A stretch of DNA of 40,176 bases, taken from IMG/VR virus record IMGVR_UViG_2698536646_000014. The stretch is one strand, 5' to 3'. Positions 3,701 through 37,638 of the stretch are shown piece by piece (position 1 is the first letter of the stretch; every line of letters begins with the position of its first letter). The notes under the pieces were generated by a model that was given only the letters and a program-made list of their open reading frames with translations, searched no databases and was not told where the DNA came from. The DNA comes from a virus (lineage: Duplodnaviria; Heunggongvirae; Uroviricota; Caudoviricetes). The translations under genes and the position numbers were made by a program.

Positions 3701-4580
3701 TCAGTGGCCTTTGTTGATGCCGTTCCTGCGCTGGAAGACGCCTCCTGAGCCGAAGTCGCGGCCTGTCCGGCTGACGTGCTGGCTGCACGCGCTGAGCCTG
3801 CAGCATCAGTCGCATGGGTTGCCGCCTCACGGGCAGATGTGCCGGCATCACTGGCTGACTTCTTCGCGGCTGCCGTGTTCTGTGCCACCGCGGACGCGTT
3901 ACGCGCCACCTCTTCCACCATCAGTTCAAAACGGCGCAGAGCCTCCGGACGGGCATCATCCTCCGTCATGGCACCGAGAAAATCATTCAGCGTACCGGGT
4001 CGGGAATCTTCATACACGGTGATGGTCCCGGCATGTGACGGCGGGAATCCTTCCACCAACAGAATAACGCTGTACTGACCGTACTCAANNNNNNNNNNNN
4101 NNNNNNNNNNNNNNNNNNNNNNNNNNNNNNNNNNNNNNNNNNNNNNNNNNNNNTTGCCGCCTCACGGGCTGATGTGCTGGCATCGCTGGCTGATTTCTTC
4201 GCGGCTGCCGTGTTCTGTGCCACCGCGGACGCGTTACGCGCCACCTCTTCCACCATCAGTTCAAAGCGGCGCAGTGCCTCAGGACGGGCATCATCCTCCG
4301 TCATGGCACCGAGAAAATCATTCAGCGTACCGGGTCGGGAATCTTCATACACGGTGATGGTCCCGGCATGTGACGGCGGGAATCCTTCCACCAACAGAAT
4401 AACGCTGTACTGACCGTACTCAACGTCCATGCTGTAACGCCCGGCTTCATCCGGATTTTCTGAGGCCAGCGTGTTCACCACCACCGTGGTGCTGTTACGT
4501 TTTGCTTTCAGCTGGATTGTGCAGTTCTGTACCGGTTTTCCTGTGCCGTCTTTCAGTACACCTGAAATCTTTACTGCCAT
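797..4580 (-). CDS. stf: side tail fiber protein Stf, interrupted by two scaffold gaps; reading frame across gaps not recoverable
   Basis: N-terminus [26 protein letters not shown] and C-terminus ...[31 protein letters not shown] match lambda Stf. Ala/Ser-rich shaft with phage-tail-fibre repeats. True start is the ATG at 4580 (track start 4586 is GTG), preceded by GGGGTG. Confidence 0.85.
1067..1570. other. assembly gap (run of N) inside stf
   Basis: Continuous n characters; the translated X-run in the ORF track is an artefact. Confidence 1.
2520..2860 (-). repeat. about 3.3 tandem copies of a 132-bp unit inside stf, encoding a 44-aa tail-fibre repeat
   Basis: Direct repeats gtgctgtt(g/a)gt(t/c)gcact... 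seen three times; protein repeat [44 protein letters not shown] x3. Confidence 0.85.
4089..4153. other. assembly gap (run of N) inside stf, flanked by near-identical duplicated sequence
   Basis: About 265 bp on each side (about 3822-4088 and 4154-4420) are roughly 97% identical, consistent with unmerged contig ends or collapsed paralogous stf copies. Confidence 0.9.
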
Positions 4581-5314: not shown

Positions 5315-8300
5315 TCAACGAATACTGATGCCGGAAGCGGCTTTTTTGGTCACAATCACCGTACAGTCGGTGATATTGCCTGCCCCCTGATTGCCTTTCT
5401 GGAAAATCTTAAACTCCAGAGTGACGCTTCCCCTGCCACTCGGCATATCAATAACTGCACTGTAACTACCGGGAATGGCCCCTTTAGTTTCTCTGGATGC
5501 GATTAATACGCCGTTTTTGCGAACTTCAAAACCATAACCCGTGTATCGCGTGCCTCCTGGGTTATTTCCGCTCCCCGGATCGTCATACGCTATACCGTTA
5601 AAAATAATGGGCGGAATAATAATCTGGCGGTCAAAGTTATGATCATCGCTGATGGTGACTGTAACCGTACCGTTTGGTGTTTCCGTGTTACCCCACGTAC
5701 CGACTTTTTTCGGGAAGGCTTTTGATACAGCTTTAACGAAATCTCCTCTGACCTGGGTCGCCTCCAGCATGCCCTTAATCGTACAGTTCTGGTTAATCGT
5801 GACATTGTTGAGCGTCCCTGAATTTGCATTCACATTACCGCTGATATCCGCATTTTTAGCGGTCAGCTTTCCGTCTGGTGTCAGGGAAAATGCCGGCGGA
5901 TTTCCACCGCTGGTAATGGTGGGAGCCGTCAGGCGTTTCAGGAACACGTCATTCATGAATATCTGGTTGCCCTGCGCCACAAACATCGGCGTTTCATTCC
6001 CGTTTGCCGGGTCAATAAACGCGATACGGTTAGCGGCAACCAGAAACTGGCTCAGTTTGCCTTCCTCCGTGTCCTCCATGCTGAGGCCAATACCCGCGAC
6101 ATAATGTTTGCCGTCTTTGGTCTGCTCAATTTTGACGCCCCACATGGCATTCCACTTATCGTTGGCGTCCTTCCACTCTTTCGAAAACTCCTCCAGTCTG
6201 CTGGCGTTATCCTCCGTCAGGTCGACTTTTTCCAGCAGCTCCTGGCCGAGATGGGATTCGGTTATCTGGCCTTTGAAAAAATCCAGGTAACCTTCCGCAT
6301 CATCGCTCGCCCGACCGACAGCCTCCACGAATGCTGATTTGCCGACGGTGTTCACACTGCGGATATAAAAGTAATAATCATGGCCCGGCTTAATATTGAT
6401 ACTGGCGGCTATCCAGTACAGCCCCGTGCCAAGGTAGCGGGCTGTGGTTTCAACCTGCCTGATATCCGCAATCCGTTTTTCCGAGAACCAGAACTCAAAC
6501 TGTACCGTCGGGTCATAAACCGCAAGATGCGGCGTGGCGGTTATCTGAAAATAGCCCGGCGTCAGCTCAATCCGCGACGGCGCTGCCGGTGCGGCAATCC
6601 GGAACGATACCGACGCCGGATCGCCCTGCTGCCCCCACGCATTTACTGCCCGGACTGTCAGCCTGTAGTTCCCCAGAGCCAGTTGTGTGAAGCGGTAAGT
6701 GGTTTCCGTCGTCCGGGCCGTGCTGACCAGCCGCTCACGGCCGTCATCCGCTGCCACGGTCAGGCGAAGCAGGAAGCTCACGCCCTTCACCACCTTCGGC
6801 GTGTCCCAGCGGGCCAGCACCTGGTATTCCCCGCTGTCTGCGGTGACTTCTGCGGTCAGGTGCTGCACCGCTGGCGGCGTGACACCATTTACCGTGCCGC
6901 TCTGGTCGCCGTCAAAGTGCGCCCCGTTATCCACGATGGCCTCTTTTTCCGGTACATGCTGCACGGCAGTGATGGCATACGTGCCGTCGTCGTTCTCACG
7001 GATACTCACGCAGCGGAACAGGCGCTGGCGCAGCGTCGGCAGCTTCAGCCCCCATACGCTGTATTCAGCAACGCCGTCAGGAACACGGCTCACTTTCACC
7101 TTCACGCCGTCGGTGACGGACTGAACCTCCACGCTGACCGGACTCCCCTGCCCGTCAACCAGGCTTATCAGCGTGGTGCCGGAAGATGGCAGCGTGATTT
7201 CACGGTCGAGCGTCAGCGTCCGGGTCTGGCTGTTTACCGCCAGCACGCGCCCGCCGGTGCGGATACCGGCATAGTCATCATCGCAGATTTCAATGACATC
7301 GCCCGGTACATGGCGAAGCCCTTCGGCACCCACGCTGAAGTCCACGGTCTGCGTTTCCAGCAGTTCTGTTTTAATCAGCCACAGCCCGGCGCGGTGTGCC
7401 TGCCCCCGGCTGGTACAGCCAAAAGCATCCATCTTCGTGACGTTACGACCGTAACGGGCAATGGCCTGCGTGTCCTCCACAAGCTCTGTCGCCGTCTCCC
7501 AGCCGTTATTCGGGTCAATCCAGTTCACCTCAACGGCATTATGGCGGTCCTTCAGGGCGCTGAANTGGGTCAGCATATCCCACAGACACCAGGCCATGTT
7601 GTTGCTGTATGCTGGCTTAAACGTTCCGTCCCAGATACCGCTGTATTGCCGCGTCTGCGGGTTATAGCTCGACGGCACCTGCAGAATGCGCCCGCGCAGA
7701 TGATAATTACGGCTCACCTGCTGGCTGCCGAACTGCTCCGAATCCACCTGCACGCCGACCAGTGCCGTGTTCGGGTAGCACTGTTTCACATCGATGATTT
7801 CGGTGTATGACGACCAGAGCGTTTTGTTCTGCAGCTGGTCTGTGGTGCTGTCCGGCGTCATCCTGCGCATCCGTATATTGAACGGGCGCGGCGGCAGGTT
7901 ACCCACCACCACCGAGGCCAGATACTGCGAGGTGGTTTTGCCCTTAATGGTGATGTCTTTTTCCGTCACCCAGCCACCATTACGTTGTATCTGAACCAGC
8001 AGGCGGACTTCCGACGGATTCCTGTCCCCCTTTGAGGTGGTTTCCACCAGTGCCTGCACACCGAAGGTAAAGCGCAGACGGTCAATGTTTGCCGACGTGA
8101 TGGTCCGGGTGATCGGCGTGTCGTATTTCACTTCCGTACCCAGTACCGTCTCGGAACCTGATGATTCAAATCCCTCCGGCGGTGTCTGTTCCTGCTCACC
8201 TGCCCGGAACACCACCGTGACACCAGAGATGTTGGTATTCCCCTCACTGTCCAGCACCGGTGTACTGTTCAGCAGCACGCTTTTTAATCCATCCACCGGA

Positions 8301-25197: not shown

Positions 25198-25414
25198 TCA
25201 GTGACTTAAGGTTGTGATTCCGGAGGAGTCTTCAGAGAACCAGTAATTCTTCCTGGTAGCTTTCCTTTGTAGGTTATCCAAACATTCTGCGCATCTANNN
25301 NNNNNNNNNNNNNNNNNNNNNNNNNNNNNNNNNNNNNNNNNNAAACCAGTACCCGGCACTACCTGCTGAGGTGCCATAGGCGACACCCGTTGTTAACTTA
25401 TCCATGGATTTCAT
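25198..25414 (-). CDS. S: pinholin (S21-like) with dual-start motif; interrupted by scaffold gap, C-terminal frame unresolved
   Basis: N-terminus [24 protein letters not shown] matches S21 (dual starts at M1 and M4); GAGGTG RBS; remainder lost in the N-run at 25298-25342. Confidence 0.6.
25298..25342. other. assembly gap (run of N) inside the holin gene
   Basis: Continuous n characters. Confidence 1.
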
Positions 25415-25481: not shown

Positions 25482-26534
25482 TTATTTCCCCACCAGCTCG
25501 TTTATCTCTTTCACTGTCTGATTAAACCGCTCTGACTCAAGCTCAACACCTAAGGCCCGACGCCCCAGCGCCATTGCTGCTTTTATTGTGGAACCGGATC
25601 CCATAAAAAAATCAGCAACCAGATCACCTGGTCGACTACTGGCATTGATTATTTGCCTGAGCATATCCGCCGGTTTCTCACACGGATGTTTCCCCGGGTA
25701 GAACTGAACGGGTTTATGCATCCAGACATCGGTATAAGGCACGGAGACTGATACGGAGAAATAGCGCCGGAGAGATTTAAACTCATCCAGCAATTCAGAA
25801 TATTTACGATTCAGTGAATCATAAGATGCCACCAGCTGGTGGTGTGGTTGTTCCAGTTGTTGTTCCTGAAACTTCTCTGCCGCTATACGGGAAAACAGTG
25901 CCTGTAACTTCCGATAGTCAGCCTCATTCGGCAACTGCCACTGACTGGCACCAAACCAGTGGGAAACCATATTTTTCTTACCTGTGGCTTCGGCAATTTG
26001 TTTTGCCGTTATACCCAGTTCGGCACGAGCATCCCTGAAATACGATATCAGCGGTGCCATTATGTGCTGTTTGAGTTCCCTTTCTTTTGCCGCATAGCCG
26101 TCACTTTTGCCGCGATATGGCCCCTGGTAATGTTCAGCAAACAGAACGCGCTCTGTGGCAGGAAAATATGCGCGCAGACTTTCTTTATTACACCCATTCC
26201 AACGTCCGGACGGCTTCGCCCAGATGATATGGTTAAGCACGTTGAAACGTTCACGCATCATGATCTCAATATCAGATGCCAGGCGATGCCCACAGAACAG
26301 GTAAAGGCTTCCGGCAGGTTTCAACACCCGCCAGAACTGGGCCAGACAGTGGTCCAGCCACTTAAGGTAATCTTCGTCCCCTTTCCACTGATTGTCCCAA
26401 CCGTTGGGTTTCACCTTGAAGTAAGGCGGATCGGTAACAATCAGGTCAATGGAATCATCAGGCAGGGACTGAATAAAATGCAGGCAATCAGCGTTGATTA
26501 AATCAACACTGTTTATTTTTACAGTATTTTTCAT
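25482..26534 (-). CDS. orphan DNA methyltransferase (beta-class amino-MTase; probably N6-adenine)
   Basis: 350-aa ORF with motif IV DPPY near the N-terminus ([11 protein letters not shown]) and motif I FxGxG near the C-terminus (DFFMGSGST); no adjacent restriction gene. Confidence 0.8.
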
Positions 26535-33080: not shown

Positions 33081-33313
33081 GCTGCACCTCCGAGATGCTT
33101 CATGTTTTTTCCGGAGCGAAAGGCTATAAGCGGCATACTGACGCGGTAATTACGGCCCAGCGGTTCACAAATCACCTTCTGGCATTCACGGTCAACCAGG
33201 CTAACACGTAGAACATGCCCTGCAGGCGTGGTGTACCACTGCCCAACTGTAGGAATTGATATTTTTTTACGCTGAAGCAAACGGCAAATATTGAGGATCA
33301 ACGGATTAAGCAT
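33077..33313 (-). CDS. hypothetical small protein
   Basis: 78-aa ORF with ATG start overlapping the upstream gene stop by 8 nt (ATGCTTAA); ends 1 nt into the initiator start. Confidence 0.4.
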   Translation of the reverse strand: MLNPLILNICRLLQRKKISIPTVGQWYTTPAGHVLRVSLVDRECQKVICEPLGRNYRVSMPLIAFRSGKNMKHLGGAA

Positions 33314-34142
33314 GACGATGCCCTCCGCTGATATTCAGGAGACGGTGAATATGAAAATTAGCCTTATCCGCCAGACGAATACGTTCAGCTTGCAAGTTAA
33401 GAAGGGTTTCTACCAGAACCTGATGTGCCTGCGGATCCGAAAGAGTTACCTTGCGCAGAGCACGTAGTGCAGTTGTTACATAACTGAGTTTATGTAAGTC
33501 TTCATCATTCAGACGAGTGAGGGCTGGGACAGTAGCCATGATGGCAGCCTCCTTGATCGGTGAAATACTTCCACCACCGGAAACGCCAATTTCGCTGGTG
33601 GTGAACTGAACGGGGTTGGCGTAACCGGTGATCAAGGAAACCGGCGCATCTTTCGATGCCCCCGCCCAGCCCACCATAACTTTGATGTGAGCAAATGCGG
33701 ACGATAAAAAAGACGCTGGCGCGTCATATATCGCCTTGATCAATTCCAGGACGCCAATCCCGGCACCCGCTTTATAAGGTGCCTGAACAGTGTAACGTCC
33801 CGGAATGGCAGAATCAATGTGCTGGTGGTCCTTCACACTCAACAAAATCACGCCTGAATTTCCACAAAGGACTAAAGCACTCATGCGGGTAGTCTTTGCG
33901 AAGATAGATAACGCGCTGTGTTTCTGGCTCCCAACGAATAACATGAACATAAAGTCCTCTTCCGTCACGAAACCAGCGGTTAAGTTCCTGCACAACTCGC
34001 CCCCCACAGTCAGGTAAAGTTCTCTGTGGTTACTTACAGCCAGGTGATTTGGTAATCTGCATTCATGCCGTAACAACAGGTGTTCAGCGACGCTGACCAC
34101 CAGCTGTTGCGACAAACGGTTATTTGCCGTTAAACTGTTCAT
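33306..34142 (-). CDS. hypothetical early-operon protein
   Basis: 278-aa ORF; ATGA overlap with the upstream YdaT-like gene; no family recognised. Confidence 0.45.
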   Translation of the reverse strand: MNSLTANNRLSQQLVVSVAEHLLLRHECRLPNHLAVSNHRELYLTVGGELCRNLTAGFVTEEDFMFMLFVGSQKHSALSIFAKTTRMSALVLCGNSGVILLSVKDHQHIDSAIPGRYTVQAPYKAGAGIGVLELIKAIYDAPASFLSSAFAHIKVMVGWAGASKDAPVSLITGYANPVQFTTSEIGVSGGGSISPIKEAAIMATVPALTRLNDEDLHKLSYVTTALRALRKVTLSDPQAHQVLVETLLNLQAERIRLADKANFHIHRLLNISGGHRHA

Positions 34143-34702
34143 GCGTTAGTTTCTCCACAGACACAAAACGCCACGACGCCCGGAGCTGCACACTCGCGGG
34201 CGTCACTCTTTTCTGGAGCGCAAAAGATTTTGTAGACCAGTGCTGCATGCTCCTGGAGCTTCGAAATTGACAGATACAACTCATCATTAATTGCTGTCTG
34301 CTCGTGTGGCTCCACTACCCCATCTTCGATTGCCGAACGAATCTGCTTTGAGTAACTCCCGATCTGTTCGATGACTTCCAGCAGGCGCTGGTTTATATCG
34401 GCGTTCTCTACTTCCTCAATTTCAGGAAGCGATACAAACACCCCACCAGCAGACTGTGCGACAGCATCCGCAATGTAGTGAGTGCCAGCCGCGCGCTGTA
34501 AAATCATTGCCCATCCCAGCGGGAAAATCTGATCGCCATCTGCACGAAGGCGGTTGAATAAAGCGTTCTCTGTTACATCCAGCCACTCAGCAGCTTCAGC
34601 GTAACCCCCCGGCAACGCCGCGATAGTTTTTCTGACAGCTTTCACGTACCACTCAGGCTGTTTTTCTACTTTCCAGTGATGCTTACCCACGGTTAGCCTC
34701 AT
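34139..34702 (-). CDS. early regulatory protein (putative CII-like / YdaT-family)
   Basis: 187-aa ORF directly downstream of the cro-like gene; family assignment by position and vague resemblance only. Confidence 0.35.
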   Translation of the reverse strand: MRLTVGKHHWKVEKQPEWYVKAVRKTIAALPGGYAEAAEWLDVTENALFNRLRADGDQIFPLGWAMILQRAAGTHYIADAVAQSAGGVFVSLPEIEEVENADINQRLLEVIEQIGSYSKQIRSAIEDGVVEPHEQTAINDELYLSISKLQEHAALVYKIFCAPEKSDARECAAPGVVAFCVCGETNA

Positions 34703-34733
34703 CGTTCTGTGGTTAAAAATTGAAGGTGTTCTG

Positions 34734-34934
34734 TTAATCTTTCGGATAGATATCCGGTCTTAAGTCAGATTTCGTAATTGCACCTGACGTGCATTGCTCA
34801 AGTTTTTTAGCCAGCACAAAACTGGCTTTTTTATAACCATTGAAAACCAGCCGTAAGTAGCCTGGTGTTGAGCCAACTTTTCCGGCCAACTCACCCTGCT
34901 GTTCTTTGGTTAAAGAGTCCCAATACGCTTTCAT
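34734..34934 (-). CDS. Cro-like HTH repressor (YdaS-like)
   Basis: 66-aa product MKAYWDSLTKEQQGELAGKVGSTPGYLRLVFNGYKK...SDLRPDIY; divergent from the CI-like gene; GGAGGT RBS. Track start at 35237 is implausible because it overlaps cI. Confidence 0.65.
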   Translation of the reverse strand: MKAYWDSLTKEQQGELAGKVGSTPGYLRLVFNGYKKASFVLAKKLEQCTSGAITKSDLRPDIYPKD

Positions 34935-35024
34935 ACAATATGTACCTCCGGTATACATATTACATGATTGAGATGAACCTTCAAGATACTTGTACCTTAT
35001 CGGTACAAAGGTTTTAATTTCTTT
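34935..35024. promoter_or_regulatory. immunity-region divergent promoter/operator region (OR-like)
   Basis: Palindromes TTGTACCTTATCGGTACAA (about 34990-35008) and ATGTACCTCCGGTATACAT (about 34940-34958); minus-strand PR-like TTGAAG - 16 bp - TAATAT; cI ATG almost leaderless. Confidence 0.6.
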
Positions 35025-35699
35025 ATGAAAACAGTCCATGACATCCGGCGGTCTAACGCCAGAAAACTGAGAGATGGTGTTGGCGGGAATTCTTCCTTTG
35101 CCACCATGATTGATCGCGAGCCAACCCAGACCAGCAGGTTTATGGGAGATGGTGCAACTAAAAATATCGGTGACAGCATGGCACGGCACATCGAAAAATG
35201 TTTCGACCTGCCTGTCGGATGGCTTGATCAAGAACACCAGACAACGAACATCACAAAAAAACCTGACGTTTCAATCACTAACAAACAAATAACGTTAGTC
35301 CCTGTCATATCATGGGTACAGGCCGGAGCATGGAAAGAAGTTGGCTATTCTGAGGTTGATTTGAGCACAGCAGAAACTTATCCCTGCCCTGTACCCTGTG
35401 GCGAAATGACTTATATCTTGCGGGTGATTGGTGATTCAATGATTGATGAGTACCGCCCGGGAGACATGATTTTTGTTGATCCTGAAGTCCCTGCCTGCCA
35501 CGGTGACGACGTTATTGCATTGATGCACGATACAGGCGAAACCACCTTCAAGCGGTTGATAGAAGATGGAACACAGCGTTATCTCAAAGCATTAAACCCA
35601 AACTGGCCTGAGCCTTACATTAAGATTAACGGTAATTGCTCTATAATTGGTACAGTGATTTTCTCAGGAAAACCAAGAAGATACATAATAAAGGCCTAA
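35025..35699 (+). CDS. CI-type prophage repressor (N-terminal HTH, C-terminal S24 LexA-like peptidase)
   Basis: 224-aa ORF with C-terminal autocleavage domain: GDSM serine motif and downstream lysine (TFKRL), PGD turn. Confidence 0.85.
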   Translation: MKTVHDIRRSNARKLRDGVGGNSSFATMIDREPTQTSRFMGDGATKNIGDSMARHIEKCFDLPVGWLDQEHQTTNITKKPDVSITNKQITLVPVISWVQAGAWKEVGYSEVDLSTAETYPCPVPCGEMTYILRVIGDSMIDEYRPGDMIFVDPEVPACHGDDVIALMHDTGETTFKRLIEDGTQRYLKALNPNWPEPYIKINGNCSIIGTVIFSGKPRRYIIKA

Positions 35700-35710
35700 T
35701 CAATATTTAT

Positions 35711-35735
35711 AACCTGCTTCGGCAGGTTTTTTTAT
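35711..35735 (+). terminator. intrinsic terminator after the cI-like gene
   Basis: acctgc-ttcg-gcaggt followed by TTTTTTT. Confidence 0.75.
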
Positions 35736-35737
35736 AC

Positions 35738-35766
35738 TTGACAATGTACCTTTGGGATACATAATG
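35738..35766 (+). promoter_or_regulatory. pL-like early-left promoter with embedded operator
   Basis: TTGACA - 17 bp - ATAATG; the spacer contains ATGTACCTTTGGGATACAT, same half-site as the OR palindromes. Confidence 0.65.
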
Positions 35767-36201
35767 TATCTAAAAGAAACACAGCACAGGCAAGATTAAA
35801 CAAAATTTGGTTGTAACACGGCGTATGGCACATGCGTCGTTAGCGGTCTGGGGACGTTAAAGGGGACAATCCACTCCTTGCTCGGGCAAACAAACCAGGT
35901 AGCCGGAATGTGCAAGTCAATGATGATGCTGATAAGACGCCTAACCAGCGTGGCGATTCGGTTTGACGCCTGGGAAGAGACCAGGGTGCAACGATGAGGA
36001 CATTTATGGAACCGCGACAAAGTGTGGTGCCGTAACTGGCTAAGTGCTCTCAGCGTTGTGGTGAATGCGCAGGCTGATGCGCGAAAGACATTGCAGCTAA
36101 TGCGGAAAAGAGCTGTTCGGCGGGGCAATTAAACGCCCGTGAGAGTCTGAAATAACCGCAAGCCGGAGATCAGCACCGGTCACCACAACAGCCACTGCTT
36201 T

Positions 36202-36247
36202 GGCGGTACCAGTTTGTACACTTGCTTCCGGCTGGTACCGCTCTTTT
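36202..36247 (+). terminator. strong hairpin plus T-run at the end of the untranslated leader
   Basis: 10-bp arms gcggtaccag / ctggtaccgc around a 19-nt loop, followed by CTCTTTTT. Coordinates approximate (1-2 bp). Confidence 0.55.
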
Positions 36248-36385
36248 TACAAAACAGAGAAGAGCATCACCGGACGACGGGCTCATAACCAAATCCATCC
36301 GGGCGGCTGCCACCGCAGGTGTTCTTCTCTGTTTTGTGGAGAAACCAACCGACCTTGCAGGGTCGATATGATTAGGAGCAGCAAA

Positions 36386-36748
36386 ATGGCTAGCGAACGC
36401 AGTACTGATGTGCAGGCATTTATTGGGGAGCTGGACGGCGGCGTATTTGAAACCAAAATCGGCGCAGTTCTCAGTGAAGTCGCTTCCGGTGTGATGAACA
36501 CGAAAACCAAAGGTAAGGTCTCACTCAACCTGGAAATCGAACCATTTGATGAGAACCGTGTGAAAATCAAACACAAACTCTCATATGTTCGCCCGACTAA
36601 CCGCGGGAAAATTTCCGAAGAAGACACCACCGAAACGCCGATGTATGTCAATCGCGGTGGTCGCCTGACTATTCTGCAGGAAGACCAGGGACAATTACTG
36701 ACTCTTGCCGGTGAACCTGACGGAAAACTCCGCGCAGCAGGTCATTAA
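36386..36748 (+). CDS. hypothetical protein, YfdP-like
   Basis: 120-aa ORF from the ATG preceded by AGGAG; upstream part of the track ORF runs through the terminator hairpin and is not coding. Confidence 0.55.
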   Translation: MASERSTDVQAFIGELDGGVFETKIGAVLSEVASGVMNTKTKGKVSLNLEIEPFDENRVKIKHKLSYVRPTNRGKISEEDTTETPMYVNRGGRLTILQEDQGQLLTLAGEPDGKLRAAGH

Positions 36749-36813
36749 TATCGTTCTTAATTAACCGATTATTTATCTCATCACTGAATATCTTTATATA
36801 GTGAGGACTTATT

Positions 36814-37638
36814 ATGTCTCAGAACTTAGACGCAACCGCAATTAATCAAATCCATGCCCTTATTTCTGCTCAGGGTGTTAATGAAATTATCAGTAAGATT
36901 GGTGCCGATGCTGTGGCATTGCCTGAGAATTTCCGCATTCATGATCTGGAAAAATTAAATTTAAATCGTTTCCGTTTCCGTGGTGCGCTTTCCACTGCCA
37001 GCATCGATGACTTTACTCGTTATTCTAAAGATCTTGCAGATGAAGGCACCCGCTGCTTTATCGATGCTGATAATATGCGTGCCGTCAGTGTTCTTAACCT
37101 GGGTACTATTGATGAACCAGGTCACGCAGATAACACCGCCACTCTCAAACTGAAAAAGACAGCTCCGTTCTCTGCTCTGTTGTCTGTTAATGGCGAGCGT
37201 AACTCCCAGAAGTCACTGGCAGAATGGATTGAAGACTGGGCCGACTACCTTGTGGGCTTTGATGCTAATGGTGACGCCATTCAGGCAACCAAAGCGGCTG
37301 CGGCGATCCGTAAAATCACAATTGAAGCGAACCAGACCGCTGATTTTGAAGATAATGACTTCAGCGGCAAACGCTCCCTGATGGAGTCTGTCGAAGCGAA
37401 GACCAAAGACATTATGCCAGTGGCATTTGAATTTAAATGCGTTCCGTTTGAAGGTCTGAAAGAACGTCCGTTTAAATTACGCCTCAGCATTATCACTGGC
37501 GATCGTCCTGTACTGGTTCTGCGCATTATTCAGCTGGAAGCGGTACAGGAAGAAATGGCTAACGAATTTCGTGATCTGCTTGTTGAGAAATTCAAAGACA
37601 GCAAAGTAGAAACCTTTATTGGTACTTTCACCGCCTGA
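36814..37638 (+). CDS. YfdQ-like protein (DUF2303)
   Basis: 274-aa ORF, same length as E. coli CPS-53 YfdQ as recalled; follows the YfdP-like gene. Confidence 0.55.

Follow-up and report, generated by a model that had tools for sequence, protein, structure and literature searches.

The palindromes that flank the repressor gene in this viral DNA are very probably the operators of a lambdoid immunity switch of the e14/SfV type, which would comprise five sites, three of them at OR and two at OL. The window (the whole 40,176-nt stretch that was analysed) carries at this place an ordinary lambda-like switch of an already known kind. The cI gene (35025–35699, plus strand) is an open reading frame for a 224-residue repressor orthologous to YmfK/CohE of e14, the cryptic prophage of E. 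coli K-12, and to cI of the Shigella flexneri phage SfV, and is separated by 90 bp from a divergent cro-like frame (34734–34934, minus strand), which coincides with the SfV cro coding sequence. The 66-residue product of the latter is a homologue of SfV cro and of e14 ymfT/croE, and gives a weak YdaS/HTH match in Pfam. The traits that define lambdoid switches are found together here: divergent genes, multiple dyads at pR and the repressor promoter as well as at pL, a repressor with HTH and S24 domains, and, judging from a conserved hexamer, the lack of a Shine-Dalgarno sequence and dRNA-seq of the e14 orthologue, a leaderless maintenance transcript.

The operator core follows a 6-5-6 pattern, TGTACC-N5-GGTACA, in which the right half may have R as its second base. 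A preliminary description of this DNA had reported three 19-bp sites with identical 7-bp half-sites, and the motif search places all three where it had put them, at 34941–34957 (S1), 34991–35007 (S2) and 35745–35761 (S3), with two, zero and one mismatches in the 12 specified bases, respectively. As 19-mers without assigned strand, they are the OR1-like S1 (34940–34958, ATGTACCTCCGGTATACAT), the OR3-like S2 (34990–35008, TTGTACCTTATCGGTACAA) and the OL1-like S3 (35744–35762, ATGTACCTTTGGGATACAT). The palindromes are thus real, but the identity of their half-sites was overstated, as perfect dyad symmetry is found in S2 alone, and S1 and S3 have TATACAT and GATACAT, respectively, as right halves. 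The count of three, correct for the sites it included, was also incomplete, as the relatives show a further site in each cluster. These are an OR2-like middle operator (34973–34991, ATGAACCTTCAAGATACTT; as a 17-mer 34974–34990, TGAACCTTCAAGATACT) and the OL2-like S4 (35764–35782, ATGTATCTAAAAGAAACAC; as a 17-mer 35765–35781, TGTATCTAAAAGAAACA), both again without strand and with three mismatches. Between S1 and the middle site (34959–34972) there is no additional operator. The hypervariable trinucleotide at 34970–34972 in this interval is best explained as unconstrained pR spacer.

Four sites with up to two mismatches occur in the 40-kb window against 1.2–1.3 expected by chance, and three of these four flank cI, in about 190 bp of intergenic DNA where 0.006 would be expected, which confirms the earlier observation. 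Matches with three mismatches number 19 in the window for about 11.5–13.6 expected. Because they have three mismatches each, the middle site and S4 are at chance level on sequence alone, and it is only from their positional conservation that they are recognised as candidate operators.

The sites can be placed relative to promoters read from the sequence. The inferred pR (34957–34984, minus strand) has the -35 element TTGAAG (34984–34979), a 16-nt spacer and the -10 element TAATAT (34962–34957), with a start near 34952–34949. The middle operator covers its -35 element; S1 begins at the last bases of its -10 element, at the 3' edge, and runs to about +12, holding in its spacer the Shine-Dalgarno sequence of cro (GGAGG on the minus strand, 34949–34945; CCTCC on the plus strand). 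In the opposite direction, a putative pRM-like promoter (34990–35025, plus strand) would consist of TTGTAC (34990–34995), a 17-nt spacer and TTTAAT (35013–35018), the latter lacking the consensus A at position 2, and would have the first base of the cI start codon (35025) as its start point, with 6 nt between the -10 hexamer and this codon. S2 overlaps the -35 element and the spacer of this promoter. A scan for consensus promoters called neither pR nor the pRM-like promoter. S2 is separated from the ATG by 16 nt when taken as a 19-mer and by 17 nt when taken as a 17-mer, the latter being the figure of about 17 bp given previously. Relative to the start at 35025 the operator centres lie at -26 (S2), -43 (middle site) and -76 (S1), so that S1 and the middle site are 33 bp apart from centre to centre, and the middle site and S2 only 17 bp.

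On the other side of cI, an intrinsic terminator (35711–35735, plus strand; AACCTGC-TTCG-GCAGGTT followed by T7) folds with -10.3 kcal/mol and a z score of -4.45, and is annotated as a terminator in SfV and Ayreon. It is followed by a pL-like promoter (35738–35765, plus strand) with 11 of 12 consensus positions, made up of TTGACA (35738–35743), 16 nt and CATAAT (35760–35765), which is annotated as a promoter in phage Ayreon. As the preliminary description stated, S3 lies inside this promoter, where it fills the spacer between the two hexamers. S4, whose centre is 20 bp from that of S3, covers the end of the -10 element and the transcription start.

The model that we propose from sequence and from analogy with lambdoid phages is that CI dimers would bind the 17–19-bp dyads with the core TGTACC-N5-GGTACA, and that the Cro-like protein would share the same sites. 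Occupation of S1 and the middle site would turn off cro and the early-right operon, occupation of S2 would turn off cI itself in an autorepression loop, and occupation of S3 and S4 would block the early-left operon. The middle site, centred 43 bp upstream of the cI start, occupies the position from which lambda CI bound at OR2 activates pRM, and could act likewise. The repressor would be made from the weak promoter described above as a leaderless mRNA, and repression would be lifted under SOS conditions, when activated RecA would induce self-cleavage of CI between Ala100 and Gly101. We infer in this scheme that the repressor binds, in which order the sites are filled, that the middle site serves for activation, that sites cooperate and that Cro uses them too. 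Two features of the geometry bear on it. The middle site and S2 abut at 17 bp, compared with 23–24 bp in lambda, so that they may not be occupied together; and the best site, S2, overlaps the cI promoter, which makes a lambda-style filling order and positive autoregulation uncertain. A perfectly symmetric and best-conserved site that lies on the -35 element of a leaderless cI promoter, together with an operator specificity kept in three bacterial families by repressors as little as 42% identical, leads to a bolder reading that we regard as rather unlikely: that the switch is wired in a manner unlike that of lambda, with S2 and the middle site filled in alternation or from opposite faces of the helix and with another autoregulatory logic, and that e14 would make K-12 immune to phages of the SfV, cdtI and Stx2c class.

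Conservation among close relatives supports the operator assignment. The loci with a near-identical repressor (cI 99–100% identical) number 82, namely 80 viral contigs plus SfV and Ayreon, and their regulatory regions fall into 42 distinct haplotypes. In S1, recurrent polymorphism is confined to spacer positions 34950–34951 and to one position of the right half, 34953, where A or G is found, G fitting the operator consensus better; in S2 it affects the spacer positions 34997, 34999 and 35000; and the spacer of S3 is hypervariable, with more than a dozen forms. Outside these sites, recurrent changes are found at the trinucleotide of the pR spacer already mentioned and at single bases (35009 and 35022). 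With the exception of 34953, the half-sites are practically invariant over the 82 loci, and hence the palindromes are kept in phages that share the repressor, their loss there having been named earlier as what would speak against operators. Fixed half-sites with free spacers are the pattern expected of sites that would bind a dimer and leave the centre uncontacted. In two of these loci (L076 and L082), S4 is a full dyad, ATGTATCTATAGGATACAT.

The same organisation extends to much more diverged repressors. A family-profile scan restricted to one genome per species gave loci with cI 42–88% identical, among them loci of Atlantibacter, Klebsiella, Leclercia, Pantoea, Rahnella, Edwardsiella, Erwinia, Serratia, Proteus, Morganella, Rosenbergiella, Salinicola and Salinivibrio. 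The comparison covered 27 full-length relatives, from Enterobacterales, Halomonadaceae and Vibrionaceae, and in these the motif occurs at fixed offsets from the cI ATG, about -84, -51 and -34, and in most of them it is found again directly after a TTGACA downstream of the cI terminator; in nearly all relatives with a pL-type promoter this hexamer abuts the operator. About two thirds of the relatives having a pL-type site repeat the motif 20 bp further on. Counting the window as well (28 loci), S1 is kept at about -84, and the middle site is found 16–17 bp upstream of S2 in most loci, with a left half that reads TGTACC in Erwinia, Proteus, Morganella and Halomonadaceae. Of the 25 loci with a pL-type S3, 18 match the motif with up to four mismatches at +20 from that site; in this S4, conservation is stronger in the left half, TGTACC, than in the degenerate right half (GnAACA). 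The information content is concentrated in the half-sites, with 1.82 bits compared with 0.33 bits in the spacer for S2 (28 loci), and 1.90 compared with 0.43 bits for S3 (25 loci). Across taxa the spacers are constrained in S1 and in the middle site, where they carry the cro Shine-Dalgarno sequence and the TTG of the pR -35 element, respectively; the relatives keep these pR signals, the TTG within the middle site and a TAAT beside S1.

Beyond this range of identity the operator changes. Homologues that are 36–40% identical have at the equivalent position palindromes of the type TTAGCA-N3-5-TGCTAA, and their putative recognition helix reads NSSYLSQVRNQ, compared with EPTQTSRFMG here, while all relatives that keep TQxSR keep TGTACC. 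Helix and palindrome thus change together, so that the operator type tracks the DNA-binding domain, in agreement with the earlier proposal that this motif sets the immunity specificity.

The repressor has the architecture expected for such a role. Pfam recognises in it only a Peptidase_S24 domain (residues 93–212), and with a family profile this C-terminal domain matches that of lambda CI (E ~1e-17), while residues 1–86 match the N-terminal domain of Rep from Salmonella phage SPC32H (PDB 5D50; E 2.7e-8), with 35% identity and an rmsd of 2.8 Å over 78 columns. The AlphaFold model predicts a four-helix N-terminal domain (helices 4–19, 22–28, 33–40 and 50–59; pLDDT 84–91), and the best overall structural match of the model found by Foldseek is the full-length lambda repressor 3BDN. 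The predicted self-cleavage residues are Ala100-Gly101, Ser138 and Lys176, Ser and Lys being near-invariant. As predicted from its sequence, CI is therefore a two-domain repressor, with an N-terminal HTH and a self-cleaving C-terminal S24 domain, and the latter fits the description of e14 CohE in the literature as a CI-like, SOS-responsive repressor. A passage in a survey of Stx-phage repressors states that, according to Pfam, one CI clade 'lacks the HTH domain'. Since the HTH is clearly present in the CI analysed here and is missed by Pfam, such calls can be profile misses, and the published claim of HTH-less CI proteins in Stx phages would possibly be correctable if this CI belongs to the clade concerned.

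It had also been suggested that the cI transcript is leaderless, as in lambda, and several observations now strengthen this proposal. In 20 of the 28 loci the last base of a TnTAAT hexamer lies exactly 7 nt upstream of the cI ATG, the bases between hexamer and ATG showing no conservation, and in almost all of the 28 no Shine-Dalgarno-like sequence is found at a usable distance from the ATG. The exceptions are an AAGG in the window, which at 13 nt before the ATG is too far upstream, and an AGGA in one relative. The distant relatives with TTAGCA-type operators also have a -10-like hexamer, 7–8 nt before the ATG. For the e14 orthologue ymfK, which is 97% identical, a leaderless mRNA is already documented: in K-12 it is among only five E. 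coli mRNAs with a leader shorter than 10 nt in dRNA-seq data from 2014 (PMC4681348). Between S2 and the cI ATG, e14 and the window differ by a single base, located in the stretch from the -10 hexamer to the ATG.

Other explanations for the palindromes have to be weighed against the operator reading. That they act as RNA hairpins or terminators, and not as DNA sites for a protein, is very improbable. A terminator scan does flag S2, whose 7-pair stem is followed by AGGTTTTAAT and which folds as RNA with -8.2 kcal/mol (z -2.9); but the folds of S1 and S3 are weak (-5.3 and -5.2 kcal/mol, respectively; z about -1.7) in comparison with the real terminator downstream of cI, and S2 is upstream of both inferred starts and would therefore be transcribed from neither pR nor pRM. 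Moreover, both arms keep the same sequence across taxa, and changes in one arm (for example GGTACA to GATACA or TGTACA) always occur without a matching change in the opposite arm. The hairpin reading is rejected on the weak folding of S1 and S3, the uncompensated arm changes and the location of S2. A chance resemblance among AT-rich promoter sequences, for which the abundance of three-mismatch matches in the window could be adduced, has a practically negligible probability: it is excluded by the enrichment in the DNA flanking cI and by the conservation of position and sequence, with free spacers, across three bacterial families.

More serious, yet still improbable, is the proposal that the sites bind a different regulator, the candidates being Cro alone, the CII-like homologue of YmfL, and a host factor. 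In distant homologues the divergent partner gene changes together with cI, so that co-variation cannot separate CI from Cro. Nevertheless, the sites lie over pR, pL and the cI promoter, precisely the places at which repressors of lambdoid phages act; their dyad symmetry fits a dimeric HTH protein; and the OL sites beside cI are retained in relatives. CII-type activators such as lambda CII bind direct repeats and not dyads, which counts against YmfL, and we know of no host factor with a TGTACC-N5-GGTACA motif, which counts against the last candidate. LexA was considered as well; its consensus dyad is CTGT-N8-ACAG, and the palindromes do not read as such an SOS box. Placement, dyad form and co-variation point to CI and Cro as the proteins that would bind these operators.

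Downstream of the early-left promoter two further elements were observed. A terminator-like hairpin at 36205–36250, followed by TCTTTTT, lies about 440 nt downstream of pL, and is followed on the plus strand by an unannotated candidate structured RNA of about 100 nt (36251–36345). In 12 diverse copies the consensus structure of this candidate has 38 pairs, with 96.5% of the cells paired and compensatory double changes in nine pairs, compared with 41–56% paired and 0–3 compensatory pairs in partner-slid controls, and its strand is fixed by invariant G-U pairs. An Rfam scan of 34000–37000 on both strands (E up to 1) returned only a spurious miRNA match, and ARAGORN found no tRNA or tmRNA in the whole window. 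At this place in e14 of K-12 the annotation gives a 'putative protein YmfH', which the candidate overlaps; xisE follows directly downstream. The long perfect stem would suit RNase III. A reading of the inner hairpin, GGGCUCAUAACCC, as a mimic of the tRNA-fMet anticodon arm is not pressed; in K-12 e14 the loop differs, GGGUUAAUAACCC.

For the field the picture changes little. The immunity type itself is widespread: of 5426 complete E. coli genomes, 2948 contain matches to parts of a 1.5-kb region, and 564 contain 80% or more of its length. It is also present in the Stx2c- and Cdt-I-toxin phages, where repressor control gates toxin release. What is added here is the five-site map, an operator consensus with signatures of selection in three bacterial families, the link to the SPC32H/Gifsy fold and the unusual spacing. 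The map and the consensus could help in predicting cross-immunity among e14, SfV and the toxin phages, and in designing reporter or gel-shift experiments.

The operator region had been annotated before, in 2002 for SfV and in 2004 for e14. In the GenBank record of SfV, the 'putative operator region' at 26377–26445 corresponds exactly to 34940–35008 of the window, its ends coinciding with the start of S1 and the end of S2. For e14, a bioinformatic identification of the repressor and Cro binding sites by Mehta et al. 2004 is reported in a later paper from the same group. The searchable literature yielded no footprint, gel shift or ChIP of the repressor on TGTACC sites; publications on Stx2c/SfV and ymfK contained no experimental mapping of operators; and full-text matches to the TGTACC motif together with operator, repressor or phage were limited to unrelated primers.

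The comparison with known immunity groups, which the preliminary description had called for, assigns the locus to the group of e14 and SfV. A region of 1.1 kb is 95–98% identical to phages cdtI, the Stx2c set, Ayreon, 2H10, SfV and SfIV, the value for SfV being 96%, and E. coli genomes with the identical sequence bear the RefSeq gene names ymfK and ymfT. The cohE(ymfK)/croE(ymfT) region of e14 shares 97% nucleotide identity over 1.1 kb and has all five sites, both promoters and the terminator; a few substitutions distinguish it, affecting the spacers and also the S1 right half, which reads TGTACA in e14. It diverges immediately after S4, and belongs to an element that is itself defective. In SfV, the OL sites carry no annotation, and the early-left leader that follows S4 is present as another allele. 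The half-sites equal those of the group except at a single position, located in the S1 right half, and such near-identity of repressor and operators would imply homoimmunity.

Among better-characterised switches, the N-terminal DNA-binding domain of CI is homologous to that of SPC32H Rep (5D50) and the Gifsy-type repressors, to which it is closer than to that of lambda CI. These repressors, however, are devoid of an S24 domain and are inactivated by LexA-controlled antirepressors (PMC3121763), whereas CI here has a complete S24 domain, and assignment to the antirepressor-controlled class was discarded, the homology being confined to the N-terminal domain. With lambda the locus shares the divergent cI and cro genes, three dyad operators that overlap pR and pRM, one of them centred near -42/-43 of the cI promoter, additional operators at pL downstream of cI and its terminator, a self-cleaving S24 CI with a homologous C-terminal domain, and the leaderless maintenance transcript. 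In contrast to lambda, the half-site is TGTACC with a free 5-bp spacer, the OR spacings are 33 and 17 bp instead of 24 and 23 bp, OL has two sites instead of three, no N gene is reported for SfV-type phages, and the site over the cI promoter has the perfect consensus, whereas OR3 of lambda is weak. It is in the abutting pair formed by the middle site and S2, and in the location of the perfect site over the cI promoter, that the locus departs most from lambda.

Beyond the pL-like promoter at 35738-35765 (plus strand), an untranslated early-left leader of about 620 nt follows OL (35766-36400). In the window and the loci with 99-100% identical cI (L001-L082), this leader is found in at least two alleles that are about 88% identical to each other, and in a further SfV/e14-type allele that is unrelated to the others and starts right after S4, the OL2-like operator at 35764-35782. 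The 3' 200 nt, which harbor a terminator-like hairpin and a candidate structured RNA, are common to all alleles.

The terminator-like hairpin (36205-36250, plus strand) has arms GCGGTACCAG and CTGGTACCGC followed by TCTTTTT, and directly 3' of it lies the structured RNA candidate of about 100 nt, on the same strand, the total span being 36205-36345. Its predicted fold consists of an outer stem of about 24 bp and two inner hairpins. Among 12 diverse copies, the consensus structure comprises 38 pairs that are 96.5% paired, with compensatory double changes in 9 of them, whereas control structures with slid partners are only 41-56% paired. Its orientation on the plus strand is set by invariant G-U pairs. 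No match for the candidate was found in Rfam; its copy in the K-12 e14 prophage lies just upstream of xisE and overlaps the annotation 'putative protein YmfH'. A stem of this length would be a fitting substrate for RNase III.

On the other side of cI, a terminator-like hairpin (AGCCAG-CACAAAA-CTGGCT, then TTTTTT; 34809-34835, plus strand) lies within the cro coding region, antisense to it. It could act as a stop for rightward transcription ahead of cI, or it could have arisen by chance, with four terminator-like sites found in the scanned region versus 2.1 expected. Downstream of cro, on the minus strand, are a CII/CP76-family gene (34139-34702), whose position corresponds to that of ymfL in e14, and a gene for a 278-aa Ash-family protein (33306-34142), which in SfV carries the annotation 'immunity region'. 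In the published comparison of SfIV, N, cII and cIII are given as absent from these phages, yet Pfam detects a CII-family domain downstream of cro.

Elsewhere in the window, only TGCCCCCGGCTGGTACA (7401-7417) matches the operator core with at most two mismatches, in line with the roughly 1.2 such sites expected per window by chance. Masked or unresolved sequence appears as runs of N at 1067-1570, 4089-4153, 7565 and 25298-25342. In a more distant branch of the repressor family (loci L116-L158 on genome contigs; 36-40% identity, recognition helix NSSYLSQVRNQ), TGTACC-N5-GGTACA is replaced by TTAGCA-N3-5-TGCTAA dyads, located upstream of the cI homologue at about 140 bp. A -10-like hexamer is located 7-8 nt before the ATG there as well, which suggests that the entire family shares leaderless repressor mRNAs.

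Pfam recognizes only Peptidase_S24 in cI and misses its N-terminal DNA-binding domain (residues 1-70, 35025-35230), a homologue of the corresponding domain in Rep of phage SPC32H (PDB 5D50). In a published survey of CI proteins from Stx phages, one clade was described, on Pfam evidence, as 'lacking the HTH domain'; there too, Pfam may have overlooked a domain that is present.
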